64,000 nucleotides of DNA from a bacterium (GCA_026709025.1 JAPOTT010000029.1:86231-150230), one strand, 5' to 3'. Counted from the first letter of the stretch, positions 13,780-52,461 are shown. Notes: generated by a model not told the origin, from the letters alone. Program-made: numbers and translations.

Positions 13780-15479
<1,700 letters not shown>

Positions 15480-22068: not shown

Positions 22069-22241
22069 CCCACAACAGTACGAGCACCTCCTGAGGATAT
22101 GTTTGGCTGCGATAAAGAAATACTTCAAATAATCGGGGATATCGATCAGCCTCTGTGGTCGGATGAGGATTTTGACATGATTGCTCGCCCAGGTCAGGTT
22201 GAGGTGTTAGACACAAAAAGATGAGTACTAGCATTGTCTGT

Positions 22242-22360
22242 GCCACGTGGTGTGTAAAAGCGAAGATGGTATATGTGCAAAAACGAAGGTTGATGCTATA
22301 ATTTCACAATGCCAGGGTACGTTCCTCGCCTTGTAGATTCATTATTGGCTGAGTACCTAG
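22242..22360 (+). repeat. Direct repeat copy A: promoter plus 5' end of the DUF4143-type ATPase gene
   Basis: Roughly 75-80% identical by eye to 25388-25505. Shared blocks are gccacgtg, gtaaaagcga, gtgcaaaaac, gtgctataatt (A reads gatgctataatt), cacaat and agggta. Confidence 0.75.
22294..22302 (+). promoter_or_regulatory. Extended -10 promoter element (TGCTATAAT) for a leaderless mRNA
   Basis: TGnTATAAT ends 6 nt before the ATG at 22309, and there is no Shine-Dalgarno sequence. This geometry is typical of actinobacterial leaderless transcripts. Confidence 0.6.
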
Positions 22361-23541
22361 CGGAACTGCCCTCGGTGATACTTGTTGGGCCACGCGCCTG
22401 TGGGAAGACAACAACTGCGGCCCTTCATGCTAACACCATCGTTCAGTTGGATTCTGAGGTAGCAGGAGCGGCGTTTCGTTATGATCCAGATGCTGCCTTG
22501 CGTAATCGGGTTGAGCCGGTTTTGTTAGATGAGTGGCAGGTTGTTCCAAGCGTTATGGGGGCAGTAAAGCGTGCAGTAGATGCTGAGCGTCGTCCCGGTA
22601 GGTTTTTGATTACAGGTTCAGCCCGTCGCCAGACCGATGACCAGTTGTGGCCCGGTACTGGTCGGGTGGTGATGATGCATATGTATCCAATGACAGTGGC
22701 GGAGCGTTTGCAAAGGCCGATTCGCCCATTTGTTGACCGCATTACGGCAGGCGAGTTGCTCAACCGTGCCGAGGGCCAGGTATTAGACATACAAGATTAT
22801 TTGCAGCTAGCTCTGCGGGGTGGTTTCCCCGAGCCTGCACTTGAATTGTCGGAGTCGACAGTTAGGGGTTGGTTGGAGAGCTATGCCGATCAGGTGGCCC
22901 TGCGGGATGCACGAGCGTTTGGGGAGATTCCTGATGCTGGCCGTTTGCGTCGATACTTGGAAGCCTATGCGCTTAATTCTGCTGGAACACCGCACGATAA
23001 AACGCTCTATGACTCTGCTGGGATAACTCGCGCTACTGCGCTGGCCTATGAGAGACGGCTTGGTGAGTTGATGGTTGTGGATCAACTGCCAGCATGGTCA
23101 ACCAACCGGCTCAAGCGTTTGGCTAGAACCCCGAAGCGATACATCATTGACTCAGGTTTGCTCGGTGGCATTCTTGGCATAGGCATAGACGACTTGTTAA
23201 CCGATGGGCGGCTAATGGGCAGCATGGTTGAGACGTTTGTTGTGGCCCAACTTCGGGCAGAGGCCGCTGTTGCTCGGGTTCGTTATCGGCTATCTCATCT
23301 GCGTGAGGCGAACGGACGCCACGAGATTGATGTGATTGTGGAGTTTGGCGGGGGAAGACTTGTGGGCATTGAGGTCAAAGCATCGGCAAGCGTCACGCCA
23401 AGAGATGCCAGACATTTACTGTGGTTACAAGAAGCAATGCAAGACCGTTTTATTGCTGGCGTGGTTTTACATACCGGCCACGACACCTACAAGCTAGCCA
23501 AAAACATCACAGCCGCCCCCATCTCCACCCTCTGGTCCTAA
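22309..23541 (+). CDS. AAA-type ATPase with C-terminal DUF4143/restriction-endonuclease-like domain (AAA_14 + DUF4143 architecture)
   Basis: Walker A VGPRACGKTT and Walker B-like PVLLDEWQ. C-terminal nuclease-like core HEIDVIVEF...LVGIEVKAS. Confidence 0.75.
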   Translation: MPGYVPRLVDSLLAEYLAELPSVILVGPRACGKTTTAALHANTIVQLDSEVAGAAFRYDPDAALRNRVEPVLLDEWQVVPSVMGAVKRAVDAERRPGRFLITGSARRQTDDQLWPGTGRVVMMHMYPMTVAERLQRPIRPFVDRITAGELLNRAEGQVLDIQDYLQLALRGGFPEPALELSESTVRGWLESYADQVALRDARAFGEIPDAGRLRRYLEAYALNSAGTPHDKTLYDSAGITRATALAYERRLGELMVVDQLPAWSTNRLKRLARTPKRYIIDSGLLGGILGIGIDDLLTDGRLMGSMVETFVVAQLRAEAAVARVRYRLSHLREANGRHEIDVIVEFGGGRLVGIEVKASASVTPRDARHLLWLQEAMQDRFIAGVVLHTGHDTYKLAKNITAAPISTLWS

Positions 23542-23688
23542 CCGGTCTGAGCTGAATCCTTCAGGTGCTCGCGGTGTTTCAACCTGTGTTTTGGACGGTC
23601 TTGAACACATCATTCCACGTTATGGCCTGCCTATTTGGGTAGGATTAGTTGGCTTCCCCTGAAACTGTGATAGTAGGCAGAAGGAAAT

Positions 23689-24852
23689 ATGGTAGCTAAA
23701 ACCGTTCCCATTACAGGCAAGGTACTTGCTTGGGCTCGTGAGGAGGCTGGCCTCACGCAGAGCGAACTAGCTGAACACGCTAAACTAGGTTTGGATGGGC
23801 TGAGGGCGTGGGAAGCTGCCGAGTCTTACCCAACTAAGGGCCAGTTCAGCAAACTGCTCAATGTGTTGAAGCGTCCGTCAGCACTATTTTTTCTGCCAGA
23901 ACCGCCAGTTCATGCCGCGATGCCCACATCTCTTCGTAGTGCCCCGTCGTTGGGGGAGCACAAACTTGGACCCAAGGAAGTCAAGGAGATTCGCTGGGCA
24001 CGTAGGTTGCAAGAGTTGGCAGTTTGGGTTCTCAGAGATCAAGTCGCGCCCAAAGTTCATCTGGCTCAATATCGGCCGAGTCAAGATGCTGCGGAGATTG
24101 CATTTTTAGAGCGTTCGAAGTCGGGTATTTCACCAGATGAGCAGCTTGCATGGAAGAGTGATTCGGAGGCTTTTCGTGCGTGGCGAGAGTACTTGGAAGA
24201 GATGGGAATATTGGTCATGCAGCTCACCATGGGTAAGAACAACATCCGGGGGTTCGGGGCGTGGGACGATTACGCACCTCTTGTAGTTGTCAACACTGCT
24301 TATCACCCAACGGCTCGGATTTTCACCCTCTTTCACGAGGTTGCCCACCTGCTGACACGCACTAACGCTGCCTGTCAGAGTTTTGTAGTGCCCGGTCAGC
24401 AGGAACAGTCTACAGAGAGGTGGTGTGAGCGGTTTGCGGCTGCGTATTTGCTGCCCGAAGCCGCTCTTAAGGACGTTGCGGGGAAGCATGGAGTATCAAT
24501 TAACATGCGAACTGCCAACCCTGACACAGCGCGGCGAATCGCTAATAGGTTCTCCGTAAGCACGCGTGCTGTAGCAATTCGTCTTCAAGAGGTTGGGCTT
24601 GCAGAACCAACCTTATATCCATCTGTTGTTGCTCAGCTTTCGAGTAGAGATTGGAATGATTCCGCAGGAGGCGGGGGAGGCGACCAGCCTACTCCTAAGA
24701 AACGGATTACTCAGTTGGGCACACGTTTGCCCAACGTTCTCATAGCGGCCGCAGATCAGGGTGGTCTCACCACACGAGATCTTGCAGACCATTTTAGCCT
24801 TACGACGGGACAAGTAGAAGATCTTAAGGGCTTGCTGGATGAGTATAGATGA
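23689..24852 (+). CDS. XRE-family HTH fused to an ImmA/IrrE-type zinc metallopeptidase
   Basis: N-terminal HTH (AREEAGLTQSELAEHAKLGLDGLRAWE) and an HExxH motif (FTLFHEVAHLL). 387 aa. Confidence 0.8.
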   Translation: MVAKTVPITGKVLAWAREEAGLTQSELAEHAKLGLDGLRAWEAAESYPTKGQFSKLLNVLKRPSALFFLPEPPVHAAMPTSLRSAPSLGEHKLGPKEVKEIRWARRLQELAVWVLRDQVAPKVHLAQYRPSQDAAEIAFLERSKSGISPDEQLAWKSDSEAFRAWREYLEEMGILVMQLTMGKNNIRGFGAWDDYAPLVVVNTAYHPTARIFTLFHEVAHLLTRTNAACQSFVVPGQQEQSTERWCERFAAAYLLPEAALKDVAGKHGVSINMRTANPDTARRIANRFSVSTRAVAIRLQEVGLAEPTLYPSVVAQLSSRDWNDSAGGGGGDQPTPKKRITQLGTRLPNVLIAAADQGGLTTRDLADHFSLTTGQVEDLKGLLDEYR

Positions 24853-25321
24853 AGTTGAGGTTTGGATAATCGACTCGTCGGCCTTAATCCATGCTAAAGA
24901 GATTGTGTCAGTTAAGAAGCAGTGGGATGTCTTCAAGCATCTTGAACTGATGGTTATCGAGGGGAGTATAGCTTTACCCAGGCAAGTTATTAAGGAGTTG
25001 AGCGAGATCGCCCACCCAGATCTTCCTGGGGCGTGGGCACCAGGTGTGCGTGGCCTCCTCAAGCATCCGCTAGATGCGGGCCATCAGTAAATTTCACAGG
25101 TCATGAGGACAGTAGGTGATGTGGTTGATGTGCATAAATCAGGTGAAGACGCAGATCCGTGGGTGCTTGCGCTTGCTTTGCATATCAAGGCAGAGGGCAA
25201 AGCCGTTTGTATTGTGACAGAGGATATTGTGGATCGCCAGAGCATTTCAATTGCGACCGCAAGTGATCGCCTAGTCATAGCTCACTGCCGAGTGCGGACT
25301 TTTTTGAGCACTATGGAATAG
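24839..25321 (+). pseudogene. DUF4411-like PIN-type nuclease gene interrupted by one in-frame TAA (25088-25090)
   Basis: ORFs 24839-25090 and 25103-25321 are in the same frame. Joined they give about 160 aa, with an N-terminal IIDSSALI (PIN-like acidic site) and a C-terminal ADPWVLALAL...IVTED. The gene overlaps the ImmA gene by 14 nt. Confidence 0.65.
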
Positions 25322-25387
25322 CAGTACTTAAAGAAAAAGATAAAGCTGAAAGTTAGGTAACTACGTTCGCGTAGTAGACCTTGATCA

Positions 25388-25505
25388 GCCACGTGATATG
25401 TAAAAGCGATAGTATATTATGTGCAAAAACAACAGGTAGTGCTATAATTGCACAATATTAGGGTATCTTTATTATCTTTTGGATTGAGTTGGCTGGTCTG
25501 TTAGC
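25388..25505 (+). repeat. Direct repeat copy B: decayed promoter plus 5' gene remnant (ATG changed to ATA)
   Basis: It retains TGCTATAAT (25440-25448). The position homologous to the start codon reads ATA (25455-25457). Downstream similarity to copy A continues for about 50 nt with many C-to-T differences. Confidence 0.7.
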
Positions 25506-47581: not shown

Positions 47582-48766
47582 TTAATTTGTTCCTAGTTCT
47601 TTCAGGATAATTCGCTCAGGTACCAGGTCGGTCAATCTGGTTAAGTTGCCTACACGTTCCAAATAGCCTGACAGCGTAAGTCGTCTATTGATCCCATAGG
47701 CAGTATCTGGGTTTTGACCAGTTTGTCGTGCGATGTCCACAATTTTTGCTTCTCCTCCCAAATCTACAAGTCCTCGTAAATGGCATCTTTCAGAGTCAGA
47801 CAAATCATAAAAGGCTGGTTCACTGATCTTTTCATCAAACTGCTTTTGCGCTAACCTAGCTGCTTGTCTTACTGCAAGCGTGTCAATATCCTGCGTGGGA
47901 GCATTGGCCACAGTCCATGCTGAGTGTCCTAAGAGTTGGAGCTTGTAGGGCGAACTTGCAGTGCTTTCTACAGCAATGTTGAGCGCATTATCTGTAATAT
48001 TACCGCCAGAATCCTTTATAGGATGTAGTAATCCTTTAGTCACTTCAGCTTCGCTTAATGCAGGCATATCGTATTGTTGGCATCGCTGAAAGAAGGTCAT
48101 TTTTTTGTCTTGCATAATTGTATATTTCATCTCAGATAGGCCCGCGCCTATAAAAGCTAGGGGTAACTCATCTCTTTTGGTTATATGTTGCAGGTCGTTG
48201 GAGAGCCTTCGTCCTTCATTTCTTTCGACAGCATGAAGTTCATCCACAGTCAGTATCACTGCTGTATTGTGTGTTTGGGCTTGTTCTGCAAGATAAGTTA
48301 ATTGCCTCCTGAGCCCCATCATGCTAATGTTCAGGTTAGATTCCGCCTCAGTTATCTCCCCTTTGAACACTCCAATATCTATGCTTTTAGTTTTCTCGAC
48401 AGTTCGCGAATCGGTCAGTCTGGATAAATCAATGTCTGGGTATCGTTCGGGTAAGGATTGAATTGCGTCTTGTATTCGTTCCAAAAGACTGTTTGTGCCA
48501 GCATCCACAGATATCACAATCCAACCGTCGGATGCTGCACGATCCTCAATTTCGGTTAGCAGAACTGTCTTGCCAGATCCCCGAACCCCCAGCAAAAGAC
48601 TGGTGTATCGCGGATCTCTCGGGCCGGTCACTAATCCAGTGCCAAGTTCAGCTAGGAGATCGTCTCGGCCTACCAACATTGCAGGAAGCTGCCCAAATCC
48701 AGGTGAAAAAGGGTTAGGGTTCGCCTGCCCCAATGCCGATGTAGTGCCCTTTTGCGTGTTCTGCAT
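47582..48766 (-). CDS. P-loop AAA+ ATPase with C-terminal winged-helix domain (Orc1/Cdc6- or AAA_16-like)
   Basis: Walker A GVRGSGKTVLL, Walker B ILTVDELH and a C-terminal wHTH-like region (IVDIARQTGQNPDTAYGINRRLTLSGYLERV). GC is clearly lower than the neighbouring genes. The ATG at 48766 is preferred; a GTG at 48769 is also possible. Confidence 0.7.
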   Translation of the reverse strand: MQNTQKGTTSALGQANPNPFSPGFGQLPAMLVGRDDLLAELGTGLVTGPRDPRYTSLLLGVRGSGKTVLLTEIEDRAASDGWIVISVDAGTNSLLERIQDAIQSLPERYPDIDLSRLTDSRTVEKTKSIDIGVFKGEITEAESNLNISMMGLRRQLTYLAEQAQTHNTAVILTVDELHAVERNEGRRLSNDLQHITKRDELPLAFIGAGLSEMKYTIMQDKKMTFFQRCQQYDMPALSEAEVTKGLLHPIKDSGGNITDNALNIAVESTASSPYKLQLLGHSAWTVANAPTQDIDTLAVRQAARLAQKQFDEKISEPAFYDLSDSERCHLRGLVDLGGEAKIVDIARQTGQNPDTAYGINRRLTLSGYLERVGNLTRLTDLVPERIILKELGTN

Positions 48767-48970
48767 CACTCCAACTTAGCGCACCAGCACACATAAATCC
48801 GCACCAACGCACAGAAAGTCATTATACTACACAGACACCTCACCGGCACACAGGAAATTGATCGGCGCACAGAACTCACACGAACCCACAAGGGGATGGC
48901 CTTAGGCCATTGAGGAATTGCCAGCCCGCTGTTAGCGCATAGGTATGGGTGTCGTTTTGTCAACAAAAAT

Positions 48971-49006
48971 ATTATTCTATTAAGTGAATTTACTCAATAG
49001 AATAAT
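48971..49006. repeat. 15-bp inverted repeat (attattctattaagt / actcaatagaataat) with a 6-nt spacer
   Basis: 14 of 15 positions are complementary. It sits exactly at the 5' truncation point of the DUF4143-type remnant and at the edge of the low-GC segment. Confidence 0.8.
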
Positions 49007-49342
49007 TGTGGTTACAGCTTTGAGGAGGCACAAGCCGACCGCTCCCATTGGGGTCGTTTAGTAGAGAGCAGTGTGGGTGCCCATTTACTGAATGCTGCTT
49101 CGGCTAGAACCGAGGTTAAATACTGGCGCGATAAGGGCCATGAGGTGGATTTCGTGCTTCAACGCGGGCCGCAAATCGTAGGTGTGGAGGTAAAGAGCGG
49201 ACAAGGTGTTTCACATACAACGGGCATTGCGGAGTTTGAAACCCGTTTCAATCCAGTCAACACCGTTGTTGTTGGCGGTTCTGGTGTGCCTCTTAACGAG
49301 TTCCTAACCCGCCCTCCTGATCACTGGTTTGGTTCTGTATGA
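49007..49342 (+). pseudogene. 3' remnant of a DUF4143-type ATPase gene that retains the restriction-endonuclease-like core
   Basis: HWGRLVESSVGAHLL...KGHEVDFVLQRGPQIVGVEVKSG aligns with the C-terminus of the intact paralogue at 22309-23541 (GRLMGSMVETFVVAQL...GRHEIDVIVEFGGGRLVGIEVKAS). The P-loop half is absent. The stop overlaps the next gene's ATG (ATGA). Confidence 0.65.
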
Positions 49343-51744
49343 GCGTGTATGTAGCCCGTACTTGCACCGAAGTTGACTTTGCTGACAAGGGTTGTTCTAG
49401 TGCTCCTCTCAGCAGCTTTAGGGAGCAGTCTGGGTATGTGCTGTTAGGCGATCCCGGCTCAGGGAAGACCACCGAGTTCAAGCGAGAGCAGGCGGCGTTG
49501 GGTGATTCCGCAGTGTGTATAAGTGCCCGAGACTTCTGTACCTTCTCGGTAAGCTCTCACCCCGAGTGGCAAGGTAAGACTCTCTTTATCGACGGGCTTG
49601 ACGAGGTGCGGGCCGGAGCCACTGATATGCGCTCAGCTTTGGATAAGATACGCAGGCAGCTTGATCAGCTTGGTAAACCACGGTTTCGCCTATCGTGCCG
49701 AGAGGCCGACTGGTTGGGCAACAACGATCTCCAGAGCTTGAAGGCAGTTTCTCCCGATTCCCAGATAACCGTTCTGCGACTTGATCCCCTCAGCGAAGAC
49801 AACATAGCCAAGCTGCTTAGACAGCATCATGGTTTGAGTGATGCATCAAGTTTTATGGATGAGGCTGAACAGCGAGGACTGATCGGGCTGCTCGGCAATC
49901 CGCAGACGCTGGTATTGCTGCTTGACGTGGTGGCACAAGAGGGACACTGGCCAGAAAGTCGCTTAGAGACGTTTGAGAGGGCTTGCCAGCAAATGGCCGT
50001 AGAACAAAACGAAGAGCATTGCATTGGCTCAGGAGTCTCGTCAGAAGATGCGGTATTGGATGCTGCTGGTTACCTGTGCGTGGTGTATCTGCTTGCCGAT
50101 GTTGCAGGATTTTCGTCTGCTCCTAATGCTGATAATCACCTAACGACTCCGATCCACTCCCTACAAGAGCTGCCCAACCTGCCAAGTAGAGAACACATGG
50201 AGCGTGTACTTAAAACAAGGCTGTTCGTTGCTCAAGACGAACACGGCCACAGCCCGGTCCACCGCCATTTAGCTGAGTTTCTAGCTGGCCGTTATCTCGC
50301 CAAGTTGATTGGTGATGGTTTATCAGCCACAAGGATAGTTGCACTGTTAACCAGACCAGAGGATGAGCGAGTTGTCACCACCTTACGAGGTCTTTCTGCA
50401 TGGCTTGCGGCTTGTTCGCCTCGTGCGCGGCAGTTATTGATAGATGCCGACCCTGTTGGGGTTGGTTTGTATGGCGACATCGGCAATTTCTCAGCCGAAG
50501 AGAAGAAGCGCTTGCTGGAATCGCTAGGTCAGTTTGCAGCAAGCGGGCCATTGCTGGGCTACGAACAGCGTGATGGGCAGTTTGTTGGCTTCCGGGATTC
50601 CACGGCTTGGGCTTTTCGATCCCTCATATCTAAAGATACAGCACCTGCCGTCAAGGAGTTGTTGTGTATCTTAGATCAGGGGGCCAAAAACAACCGAATA
50701 GCCGACTTTATCTTGACGTTGCTTAAGTCTGTAGAGAAGGAAACTTTGCAGTTATTTGACGACATCGGTACAGGCATTGAGACAATTGTCCGCAACCCGA
50801 AGCAATCTTCTATGTCTCGTTGCCTAGCGTTGGATGTTTGCATTCGTTTAGTAATTGAATGTGATATTGGGGCTGCTTGTTTGCTTCAGCTTTTGGGCGA
50901 TATATGTGCTGGTACGGTGTCCGACCCCGAGGATGATTTACGTGGCACCCTCTTGCAATACCTGTACCCAGCGCAGATACATCCATCAAAGATATGGGAT
51001 TATATTTTACCATGCAATCAGCGCTACTACTCGGGTCGTTTTTCTAAGTTTTGGCGTTCTCAGATTCTTGAACAATCTGAAGCCGGTCATCTGGCGGAGT
51101 TACTCGACTCGCTCAGTGAAGACAATTCAAAGATTATTTTGGCTTTAGAGCAGGCTGGTTTCAGAGACTTGCCTTTTGAGCTACTGTGCCAGGGTTTAGA
51201 GGCTTGGGGAGATAAAATAGAGCCGTCACGTCTATATAACTGGCTAGATGCTCCGAAACGTTCCCAAAACCCTAGATATCTACAAGAGCTGCGGTATGAA
51301 AACGATAGTCCAGCATGGCGGATTAAAAAGTGGCTGGAAGCTCATCCTAACATTCAGAAATTAGTTTTCTTAGCATGGATCAGGCGGCACAAGAGCGATA
51401 CCCGTAGAGTCAATTACGATCCTCAACTTTGCAATGCCTTGCACTGGAGTAAGCCTGCGGGTGACTTCGGTGTTTGGTGCCTTAGCACTGCGCTTCAGTT
51501 GGCAGATTCCGAACAGTCTACCGCAGATGCGCTGCTGTTGCTGGCTTACCGTTCTCTGCAAGACCCTGCCATTAGTGAAGAGCTCACGATTGAGCGCCTA
51601 CAACGTCAAACAAAAGGTAACACCAGGCTAGCCGCGCTGCTTGAGAGCCTTTGTAAGCCTTCGCTTCCACGAAAAGAAGAACTGGAGTGGCAGCAAGAGG
51701 AGCAGAAGCGTATAGAAGATTATGAAGCAAAAAGGCGTAAATAG
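49339..51744 (+). CDS. NACHT/STAND-type NTPase with a helical C-terminal region. It ends at an in-frame TAG and the reading frame continues.
   Basis: Walker A LGDPGSGKTTE, Walker B LFIDGLDEV, then RLSCRE, GNPQTLVLL and the NACHT-like HRHLAEFLAGRYLA motif. Confidence 0.75.
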   Translation: MSVYVARTCTEVDFADKGCSSAPLSSFREQSGYVLLGDPGSGKTTEFKREQAALGDSAVCISARDFCTFSVSSHPEWQGKTLFIDGLDEVRAGATDMRSALDKIRRQLDQLGKPRFRLSCREADWLGNNDLQSLKAVSPDSQITVLRLDPLSEDNIAKLLRQHHGLSDASSFMDEAEQRGLIGLLGNPQTLVLLLDVVAQEGHWPESRLETFERACQQMAVEQNEEHCIGSGVSSEDAVLDAAGYLCVVYLLADVAGFSSAPNADNHLTTPIHSLQELPNLPSREHMERVLKTRLFVAQDEHGHSPVHRHLAEFLAGRYLAKLIGDGLSATRIVALLTRPEDERVVTTLRGLSAWLAACSPRARQLLIDADPVGVGLYGDIGNFSAEEKKRLLESLGQFAASGPLLGYEQRDGQFVGFRDSTAWAFRSLISKDTAPAVKELLCILDQGAKNNRIADFILTLLKSVEKETLQLFDDIGTGIETIVRNPKQSSMSRCLALDVCIRLVIECDIGAACLLQLLGDICAGTVSDPEDDLRGTLLQYLYPAQIHPSKIWDYILPCNQRYYSGRFSKFWRSQILEQSEAGHLAELLDSLSEDNSKIILALEQAGFRDLPFELLCQGLEAWGDKIEPSRLYNWLDAPKRSQNPRYLQELRYENDSPAWRIKKWLEAHPNIQKLVFLAWIRRHKSDTRRVNYDPQLCNALHWSKPAGDFGVWCLSTALQLADSEQSTADALLLLAYRSLQDPAISEELTIERLQRQTKGNTRLAALLESLCKPSLPRKEELEWQQEEQKRIEDYEAKRRK

Positions 51745-51762
51745 CAGTCTGAATGGGCAGAG

Positions 51763-52461
51763 TTGGTGGGGGGACACCGCGCAGATTTGGAGGAAAATCG
51801 GGCCGCTCCTAACTTGCTGCACAATCTGGCTATGGCTTATTTCGCTTTTATTGTTGAAGTGGATCAACGTGCCAGCCCGCAAGAACGTATCAGCCAATTC
51901 TTAGGTGACGATGTCGAGTTGACCGGCGTGGTGCTCACCGCTCTGCGTGAAGCAGCTTTCCGAGATGATCTGCCTGAGGTGGATAGCACAATCTCGCATC
52001 GCGCAGGGCTCAGGGATTTCATCGGTACTCATAACGAAAGATCCAGGCATCTAGCTGAGATGCTACGAGGCTGCGCCTACAACCAATCGTGGGGGCCTTC
52101 AATAATGGGCCAGTGCTCAGATGCAGCCCTTTTGTGCGATGTGATACAGATGCTAGGCAGTCTCTATGGGCCGCTGTTCCCAGCTGGGCGTGTAACTTTG
52201 GAAGTAGATGCCTCAGATCGCATCGCCAGCATGATCTCCCTGCTTGCTGCAATGCCTAGCGAAGCTGCCCAAGAGTCGTTGACTGACTTGTCCAGCGATC
52301 CGCAGCTAACTTCATGGCACAAGCACATCCAGCATGCAAGCGAAAGCCAGAGAGTTCTCTTAGGAGATGCCTCCTATATAACCCTAAGCACAGAGCAAGT
52401 CCAAAACACCCTCAGCAACCAAAACCCCGCCAACGTATGTGCGGTATTTACAGGGTATTAG
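51763..52461 (+). pseudogene. Continuation of the STAND NTPase reading frame after the TAG at 51742-51744
   Basis: It is in the same frame as 49339-51744 and only 6 sense codons separate the TAG from the track start. There is no independent RBS or ATG (TTG start in the track). Confidence 0.55.

Follow-up and report, generated by a model that had tools for sequence, protein, structure and literature searches.

The locus described here lies in a 64,000-nucleotide (64-kb) stretch of bacterial DNA (GCA_026709025.1 JAPOTT010000029.1:86231-150230), which we refer to as the window. Three co-oriented open reading frames (ORFs), here called A, B and C, fall within positions 22309-25321. The genes mutA, mutB and meaB flank them upstream. 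Downstream, on the minus strand, are genes that Pfam matches identify as an ABC ATPase, two permeases and a binding protein, together an amino-acid-type transporter. This is the layout given by a first-pass annotation made from the sequence alone, which took the three genes for one candidate defence or addiction module. Drawing on family and fold assignments, linkage statistics, synteny and gene lesions, we think it quite probable that the locus is instead a small mosaic of two independent modules, the single gene A and the two-gene pair B-C, and no three-gene system. Five assemblies from five different samples are each 100% identical to the window, and all represent one population.

The genes and their families

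Gene A (22309-23541, plus strand) is intact and encodes a protein of 410 amino acids (aa) that combines an AAA_14 ATPase domain (Pfam, E 1e-14) with a DUF4143 domain of the PD-(D/E)xK type (E 2e-34). The protein matches PDLC04790, a PADLOC model of the candidate type PDC-S01, with E 9e-107, its residues 1-410 aligning to model positions 8-419 of 422. The Walker A (GPRACGKTT) and Walker B (LLDEW) motifs and the nuclease core (E339-x-D341 ... E355-x-K357) can be read directly, and these residues are invariant in an alignment of 28 homologues. The P-loop and C-terminal D/E-x-K-like core that had been proposed for this ATPase are thus both present. Searches of PDB sequences with A, as a single sequence and as a profile, returned no meaningful match. 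Based on its full-length match and architecture, A is a plain PDC-S01 member, for which an anti-phage role is a prediction.

Gene B (23689-24852, plus strand) is also intact. Its 387-aa product is RmrA-like and fuses an XRE-type helix-turn-helix (HTH) to an M78 (ImmA/IrrE) metallopeptidase. Pfam reports HTH_3 (E 1e-7) and Peptidase_M78 (E 2.5e-19), and the protein matches 14 PADLOC RmrA models (best E 7e-25), PADLOC capP (E 8e-13) and PHROG 2439, labelled 'transcriptional regulator' (E 3e-44). The motif HEVAH (H216, E217, H220) provides the HExxH signature, which is invariant in 35 homologues. An AlphaFold2 (AF2) model of B, with a predicted local distance difference test (pLDDT) score of 87, matches IrrE (3dte) and PprI with single-stranded DNA (ssDNA; 8sln) in Foldseek, and it also resembles the XRE HTH domains of SinR, ImmR, DdrO and CapH. 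Pfam, the RmrA models and the IrrE and XRE fold matches together bear out the fusion of an XRE HTH to an HExxH ImmA/IrrE peptidase that the first-pass annotation had described. Metagenomes scanned with B as the only query yielded no match.

Outside the Pfam coverage, the AF2 model of B contains a well-predicted C-terminal four-helix domain (residues 335-386). A run of five to six glycines, conserved in B and in all close homologues, is modelled as disordered (residues 325-331). In the window, the Gly-rich stretch (residues 325-334) corresponds to 24661-24690 and the C-terminal domain (residues 335-387) to 24691-24849. Judging from the model, the glycine run and the four-helix domain could be a cleavage linker and a candidate toxin-binding or second HTH/DNA-binding element.

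Gene C (24839-25356, plus strand) is a pseudogene of the DUF4411 PIN-like family, broken by a TAA at 25088-25090 and by a 1-nt deletion near 25299-25304. Its present frame runs from 24839 to 25321, where it ends owing to the deletion; the ancestral stop is TAG at 25354-25356. Its start overlaps the end of B by 14 nt (24839-24852), as the first-pass annotation had noted. In a DNA alignment, five orthologues have CAC or TAT at the TAA site. The deletion falls in a T-run, and the +2 frame downstream of it reads FFEHYGIAVLKEKDKAES and then a stop, corresponding to the C-termini of the orthologues (for example, RTFFEHCGIAVLKEDEED in locus L015). The TAA is present and identical in all five assemblies and is therefore no assembly error. 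Since both lesions are carried by the five assemblies of this one population, we consider them real. With its two lesions, C is not an intact, translatable gene in the window.

The family of C can be recognised despite this damage. With the TAA repaired or masked, C scores 26.4 bits against Pfam DUF4411 (PF14367; gathering cut-off 23.5), and its orthologues carry precomputed PF14367 assignments. Intact orthologues are 167-174 aa long, and the window C was aligned with 23 of them. The PIN fold was examined on the orthologue P0244, which is 72% identical to the repaired window C, and not on the broken gene. All of the top PDB matches of its AF2 model (pLDDT 84) are PIN proteins, namely HARP RNase P, VapC11, Nmd4, Rv0301 and VapC21 (probability 0.96-1.0, template modelling (TM) score 0.43-0.62). 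The invariant residues D12, E53, D106 and D129 (P0244 numbering) are all encoded in the window C. The Pfam match above cut-off and the PIN fold of P0244 uphold the placement of C in the DUF4411 PIN-like nuclease family. Overall, profile searches with Pfam and PADLOC support all three of the originally named families; the PADLOC calls themselves are separate, PDC-S01 for A and RmrA for B, with none for C.

Damage to C recurs elsewhere. The gene is truncated or split at loci L019, L020 and L096, where B is intact, and of 95 C homologues in the database, 21 fall below 140 aa (intact proteins have about 170 aa). By analogy with toxin-antitoxin (TA) systems, decay of the toxin first, with the antitoxin kept, is what a toxic partner would predict. 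Because C carries two disabling mutations, the predicted killing arm is dead and only the antitoxin or regulator B survives; B may persist as an orphan regulator or antitoxin. In these terms the locus offers a worked example of TA decay, with the predicted toxin lost first and the antitoxin retained.

Linkage among the three genes

To compare gene neighbourhoods we used 80 B loci from species-representative genomes, fetched from the alignment of B homologues. These include Acidimicrobiia, Chloroflexota, Acidobacteriota, Myxococcota, Proteobacteria, Patescibacteria and Micrarchaeota. A DUF4411 gene, as detected with iterative hidden Markov models (HMMs), lies directly downstream of B at 73 of the 80 loci, and two of the seven exceptions are at a contig edge. 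On (pro)viral contigs from IMG/VR, a DUF4411 gene is downstream of the B-like gene at 28 of 29 loci. The first-pass annotation had described ImmA-type and DUF4411 genes as a recurring pair whose function is not experimentally established. The counts confirm the recurrence, and on function the pair has been the subject of predictions (PMC5499597, PMC10440598), with no assay found in the literature searched. The overlap between B and C is often short, and the 14-nt overlap recurs in close relatives.

The pair also has a characteristic upstream region. In the window this region (23637-23688, plus strand) has a -10-like TAGGAT at 23640-23645 and a leader of about 40 nt that contains GAAGGA before the ATG. 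Approximately 50 nt upstream of B are conserved in unrelated contexts (L015, L016, L020 and L095), in the order TAGCAT or TAGGAT, CTTTCCC, GGCAGAAGGA and then ATG. The sharing of this block among unrelated contexts suggests that the B-C pair carries its own putative promoter.

The neighbours of B-C are typical of defence islands: type I restriction-modification, DNA methylases, AbiEii, AAA_21/RloB, ApeA and Fic. Restriction-modification is the commonest class among the nearest upstream genes (74 loci; by Pfam, N6_N4_Mtase 7, N6_Mtase 3, Eco57I 3, HSDR_N 2 and Methylase_S 2), and DUF4143 is outside the top 25. By analogy with characterised pairs, we interpret B-C as a TA pair of the Rosmer family with a predicted PIN-like toxin.

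Two arrangements of the pair in relatives are worth recording. In L016 (7400-7900; Acidimicrobiaceae metagenome-assembled genome (MAG) JAPOYA010000017), B-C is found just downstream of a DUF4143 fragment. The ORF of this fragment starts AELADAQASG..., which is typical of translation through a tRNA gene, and the sequence suggests an insertion beside a tRNA locus. In L019, an Acidimicrobiales MAG chromosome, a partial second copy comprising the 3' end of B and the start of C is present at 14582-14827 on the minus strand. It is 67% identical to window positions 24646-24891, and some 5 kb separate it from the main pair, which is on the other strand; this arrangement speaks for the pair having been rearranged or duplicated within the island.

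Gene A does not share this linkage. Its closest homologues, P0123 (77% identical) and P0122 (76%), have the same mutA-mutB-meaB-[A]-ABC ATPase-permeases-binding protein synteny, with no B-C. In these two genomes, 10-28 nt separate the stop of the A orthologue from the ABC gene end. The identity of A to its counterparts at the two orthologous loci (76-77%) is comparable to the values for the housekeeping proteins on either side (MutB 80-83%, MeaB 79-82%, permeases 71-79%, ABC ATPase 89-92%), and A was therefore probably resident at the meaB/ABC site before the split of the three lineages. The L098 genome has a B-C pair (P0017) as well, about 1.6 Mb from its A gene.

The same pattern is seen in larger sets of loci. 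Neither a DUF4411 gene nor a true B homologue was found at any of 86 loci with A homologues (47-77% identity, 598 kb; 50 of these loci have at least 1.7 kb of downstream sequence). From the side of B, a DUF4143 gene is present in the fetched flanks (within 8 kb) at four of the 80 genome loci and at none of the 29 viral loci, and one more metagenome B-C locus, L097, has such a gene. These DUF4143 ATPases are only 26-34% identical to A, or are fragments, and are not orthologous to it. Those of L019 and L097 share 99.5% identity with each other and 34% with A, yet one lies to one side of the pair and one to the other, on different strands. Within the window, PDC-S01-type sequence occurs as one intact gene, a stub at 25388-25498 and a remnant at 49073-49342.

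A three-gene module of A, B and C thus finds no support from the A side (0/86) or from the B side (4/80 and 0/29), and the syntenic A orthologues stand without the pair. The first-pass annotation had itself named a lack of conserved linkage in other genomes as evidence against the module. On the strength of the synteny and of these counts, that lack of linkage is what we find for the ATPase. The locus shows how adjacency alone can suggest a false three-gene system.

Repeats around gene A and other features of the window

Directly upstream of A is a promoter/operator-like region, P1 (22242-22308, plus strand), recognised from its sequence and conserved upstream of the orthologues in L098 and L099. 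P1 contains 23-nt tandem units, TGTGTAAAAGCG at 22251 and TGTGCAAAAACG at 22274, and an extended -10 element, TGCTATAAT, at 22294-22302. The ATG of A comes 6 nt past this element, so the A mRNA is probably leaderless. P1 is accordingly described here as a putative promoter, on sequence grounds. The same layout of units, -10 element and ATG recurs ahead of the A orthologues in L098 and L099.

Tandem units of this kind are widespread upstream of A homologues. We scanned the 130 nt upstream of each for the best 20-nt self-match at lags of 19-27. A match of at least 15/20 was obtained in 50 of 82 upstream regions, compared with 0 of 82 in each of two coding-region controls, an enrichment figure that is rough in that the controls are coding and not intergenic sequence. 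The lag is 23 in all 63 loci scoring at least 14, and such a fixed period is hard to explain by composition. Arrays of two to four units are present at 70 of 83 loci and end a median of 20 nt short of the start codon. The -10 element directly follows the last unit, and PDC-S01-type genes look leaderless. Units are 69% alike within a locus versus 49% between loci (best rotation). The unit sequence is lineage-specific, with a loose core G-G/C-G-n-AAA-n2-GGTA (loci L098-L183 and window 22251-22302).

We found no description of tandem 23-nt repeats upstream of PDC-S01 genes in the literature searched. The arrays may be an autoregulatory operator or an iteron array, possibly bound by the ATPase, and they provide a concrete handle on what PDC-S01-type ATPase-nucleases bind. 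Elsewhere in 515 kb of loci, the units gave six matches versus two for shuffled units, and five of the six were in one longer array. We also considered the units as transposon-like end repeats around the ATPase gene, an idea that was dropped when no extra copies were found beyond the upstream arrays.

P1 is part of a direct repeat that the first-pass annotation had seen as delimiting the module. The repeat is real (22242-22339 versus 25388-25485; 83% identity over the best 72 nt, blastn E 2e-12 within the window), but its supposed role as a boundary is not borne out, as it is a copy of the promoter and 5' end of A. Its upstream copy lies within the module and comprises the promoter-like region and first codons of A. 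There is no third copy in the 64 kb, and none in the fetched loci except on contigs of the same strain. The repeats were also considered as att sites or as a repeated genomic element, and rejected in view of no further copy and no integrase nearby.

The downstream copy, P2 (25388-25498, plus strand), appears from alignment as a decayed version of the A promoter/operator and first ~15 codons. It keeps the units and the -10 element of P1, its start codon has changed from ATG to ATA at 25455, and it contains an in-frame TGA. At 25499 it abuts the native A/ABC spacer, TGTTAGCC, which is the sequence found just after the stop of the A orthologue in L098. From these junctions, P2 looks like the remains of a second copy of A from which nearly all of the coding region has been deleted, with B-C between the copies. 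This implies that the ATPase gene was once duplicated or replaced and that a large internal segment was later lost. The second copy may have originated by local duplication, or when a block arrived beside an older resident copy of A. The identities among the upstream regions (P1-P2 74%, P2-L098 70%, P1-L098 63%) are too close to date or orient the duplication.

The junction between meaB and A is a variable spot. In the window, approximately 170 nt of extra sequence (22069-22241) separates meaB from the A promoter. L098 lacks this sequence, and its promoter units overlap with the final part of meaB; L099 has a citrate synthase gene in its place. A 41-aa ORF within the extra sequence (22099-22224) has no PHROG match. 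An apparent structural variant upstream of gene A in L001 proved to be merely a scaffold gap of Ns. A scan for sigma-70 promoters and terminators gave nothing above shuffled expectation, but it overlooked the TGnTATAAT element and so is silent on operon structure.

Farther along the window, positions 47582-52461 are a possible second small defence-like island. An AAA_16/STAND-like ATPase gene (47582-48769, minus strand) is present together with an 89-aa C-terminal remnant of a PDC-S01/DUF4143 gene (49073-49342; PADLOC PDLC04791, E 4e-23). The remnant overlaps the start of a gene for an 801-aa P-loop protein (49339-51744), which has no Pfam or PADLOC match and is followed by a 232-aa ORF (51763-52461), also with no match.

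Proposed mechanism, rival explanations and known systems

In the explanation we favour, A is a single-gene AAA+ ATPase fused to a PD-(D/E)xK nuclease, with its own putative promoter and tandem 23-nt repeats. The B-C pair would be a mobile two-gene TA or abortive-infection pair of the Rosmer family that joined the locus later, downstream of A. The flanking direct repeat would be a by-product of the rearrangement that duplicated the promoter and 5' end of A. For the intact pair, every mechanistic step is proposed by analogy. B, bound to DNA via its XRE domain, would repress the operon and keep C, a PIN-like RNase, inactive. The M78 peptidase of B would then be switched on by a cue from phage or DNA damage, in the manner of ImmA/ImmR, IrrE/DdrO and CapP/CapH. 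Cleavage of B or of its HTH would follow, and the released C would cut RNA and cause growth arrest.

Several observations weigh against this explanation. In the literature searched, no experiment ties any DUF4411 protein to toxicity or any B-type protein to neutralisation. The repaired C and three intact orthologues match no PADLOC model, even with E up to 10; with no RmrT model matching DUF4411, standard tools would not call RosmerTA here. The sole assay found of a defence role for PDC-S01 was negative, one cold-seep representative giving no protection to E. coli B against T4, T5 or T7 (bioRxiv 10.1101/2024.09.26.614923). Given the upstream identities of P1 to P2 (74%) and of P2 to L098 (70%), A and B-C may also have arrived as one block, the older resident A then being deleted. 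In addition, the few DUF4143 neighbours of the pair are all within ~2.5 kb of it and mostly upstream and co-oriented (the window, L016, L028, L058 and L097). This placement is more orderly than chance alone would suggest and may reflect a weak association.

A rival explanation is that A, B and C form one three-component defence or addiction system, in which the ATPase-nuclease is a sensor or effector under protease-repressor control. In its favour, the three genes are adjacent and co-oriented. A DUF4143 ATPase lies less than ~2.5 kb from the pair in four other, independent lineages (L016; L019/L097; L028; L058), mostly upstream on the same strand, and of the 16 kb examined, the nearest ~5 kb hold all four DUF4143 matches among the 80 genome loci. 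Counter to this, A orthologues occur in synteny without B-C, which is found at none of the 86 A loci, and ~95% of B-C loci are without a DUF4143 gene. The adjacent ATPases are non-orthologous (26-34%) and often degraded (a fragment in L016, a frameshift in L028), there are intervening genes in L028 and L058, and the ATPases of L019 and L097, though 99.5% identical, differ in strand and in the side of the pair on which they lie. PDC-S01 genes are moreover very common: the window has one intact gene and two remnants, and the type ranks as the fourth most common candidate system (PMC12988326). We consider a three-component system highly improbable, since the synteny and the counts already largely refute it. 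It is also very unlikely, in our view, that the presence of DUF4143 ATPases upstream of HTH-M78/DUF4411 pairs represents a real facultative coupling and not island crowding. If it did, an ATPase-nuclease that seems to have lineage-specific 23-bp sites could, for example, activate the M78 peptidase by producing its DNA or ssDNA signal. Another possibility is that DUF4143 genes create preferred landing sites for the B-C pair. For gene A itself, a housekeeping or regulatory role is possible, although we incline against it: A would then be a vertically inherited, autoregulated DNA-binding ATPase-nuclease whose adjacency to B-C is incidental. Its synteny and conservation like that of its housekeeping neighbours in three lineages, the 23-nt tandem array upstream of 70 of 83 family members and the lack of protection by the tested representative against T4, T5 and T7 are all consistent with such a role. 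Yet the family is patchy, multi-copy and often degraded (stub 25388-25498, remnant 49073-49342, fragments in L016 and L028), the genomic context is already different at 71% identity, and PDC-S01 was found through its embedding in defence islands by PADLOC (PMC12988326). This alternative touches the role of A alone and is compatible with the mosaic of two modules.

The remaining alternatives concern the pair. The XRE plus M78 combination is the architecture of ImmR/ImmA-type switches, the model of B matches ImmR, the CapH HTH and IrrE/PprI, the protein matches PHROG 2439 (E 3e-44) and the pair is on 28 (pro)viral contigs. B-C could on these grounds be a leftover mobile-element switch, such as ImmR/ImmA of ICEBs1 or a prophage repressor/antirepressor, and not a TA or defence system. 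We regard this as unlikely: no integrase, recombinase or phage gene is beside the pair in the window and the chromosomal relatives examined, and its constant partner is a PIN-like nuclease gene and no repressor target. The pair also moves as a two-gene unit among unrelated contexts rich in restriction-modification and Abi genes, and the recurrent inactivation of C with an intact B fits a toxic partner. Very unlikely, too, is a B-C pair that remains functional in the window, with the TAA read through or recoded, or with fragments of 83 and 72 aa forming a split PIN nuclease. It is true that D12, the E53-equivalent, ADP and VTED are all still encoded in C, that the identical sequence persists in five samples and that an ATG at 25103 could restart translation. 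However, the independent 1-nt deletion replaces the conserved C-terminal ~19 residues, no Shine-Dalgarno-like sequence is found ahead of 25103, and the orthologues are uninterrupted at 167-174 aa. In the P0244 model, the acidic residues belong to one compact domain, and the break puts its first catalytic Asp on a different fragment from the rest.

Returning to the mosaic of two modules, the locus is largely ordinary: A is an older resident ATPase-nuclease beside a widespread, already predicted TA pair with a dead toxin gene. It carries little weight as a defence lead, both modules being of catalogued kinds and the more interesting one being broken here. The wider interest is in the pairing of HTH-M78 with DUF4411, which is tightly linked across many phyla and viral contigs, yet missed by current PADLOC models. 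With the intact P0002 and P0244 (Acidimicrobiales MAG OZ242356) as a clean candidate, the Rosmer family might be extended to include a PIN-like toxin.

Comparison with known systems places the two modules separately. A is identical in architecture to PDC-S01 (COG1373), a single-gene ATPase plus PD-(D/E)xK nuclease (PMC12988326, PMC3424549). B-C resembles RosmerTA, which has two genes and an antitoxin with an N-terminal XRE HTH and a Zn-peptidase, and in which an rmrA deletion was not transformable (Millman et al. 2022, bioRxiv 10.1101/2022.05.11.491447). As in RosmerTA and NetFlax, where toxin partners vary, the setting is one of defence islands and phages; NetFlax pairs an ImmA 'D25' antitoxin hub with PIN-like toxins (PMC10440598). 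B has the antitoxin architecture of RosmerTA, whereas a recognised RmrT partner is missing, as the predicted toxin is a DUF4411 protein with no PADLOC RmrT match. The validated Rosmer toxins are unrelated to it (of unknown fold; in phage Kita, membrane-depolarising). B also aligns to only ~290 of 363 RmrA positions and has an extra Gly-rich linker and C-terminal four-helix domain, the gene order of B-C is antitoxin first, and the toxin gene is a pseudogene in the window. RipAB (Spr1630/Spr1629) of Streptococcus pneumoniae likewise has an XRE and ImmA-like fusion, RipB, which is assigned to the Rosmer family and is essential solely in the presence of the RipA toxin (bioRxiv 10.1101/2025.09.02.673660). 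B is a non-member of that group (48.6 bits versus a cut-off of 335 for NCBIfam NF052239, the spr1629 equivalog), and RipA targets the sliding clamp, is not PIN-like and is encoded first.

Parallels with better-known regulators and toxins are more partial. In ImmR/ImmA (ICEBs1), DdrO/IrrE(PprI) and CapH/CapP, DNA damage or ssDNA is the signal on which an HExxH M78 metallopeptidase cleaves a repressor of the XRE type, and B shares the predicted domains. In contrast to B, which is a fusion paired with a nuclease, those systems have a separate repressor and protease that control a regulon, an element or CBASS. VapBC resembles the pair in the PIN-like fold and acidic active-site residues of C (VapC11, VapC21 and Rv0301, TM 0.5-0.6) and in a toxin gene that comes second and overlaps the antitoxin gene. 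It differs in that the antitoxin here is a 387-aa HTH-peptidase fusion and no small RHH/AbrB/Phd-type VapB, and sequence identity to VapC is merely 10-18%. The pairing of B with C is itself already predicted, in 2017 and again in 2023 (PMC5499597, PMC10440598). Matelska et al. (2017) predicted HTH-DUF955 plus DUF4411 as a TA system (PMC5499597), and their three-component HTH / DUF955 (ImmA) / DUF4411.1 system has four conserved acidic residues in a PIN-like DUF4411. DUF4411.1 is monocistronic in most Actinobacteria (PMC5499597), whereas here and in Acidimicrobiia relatives it is paired with B. The architecture is otherwise exactly that of B-C: a fused HTH-DUF955 gene followed directly, on the same strand and in a conserved arrangement, by DUF4411.

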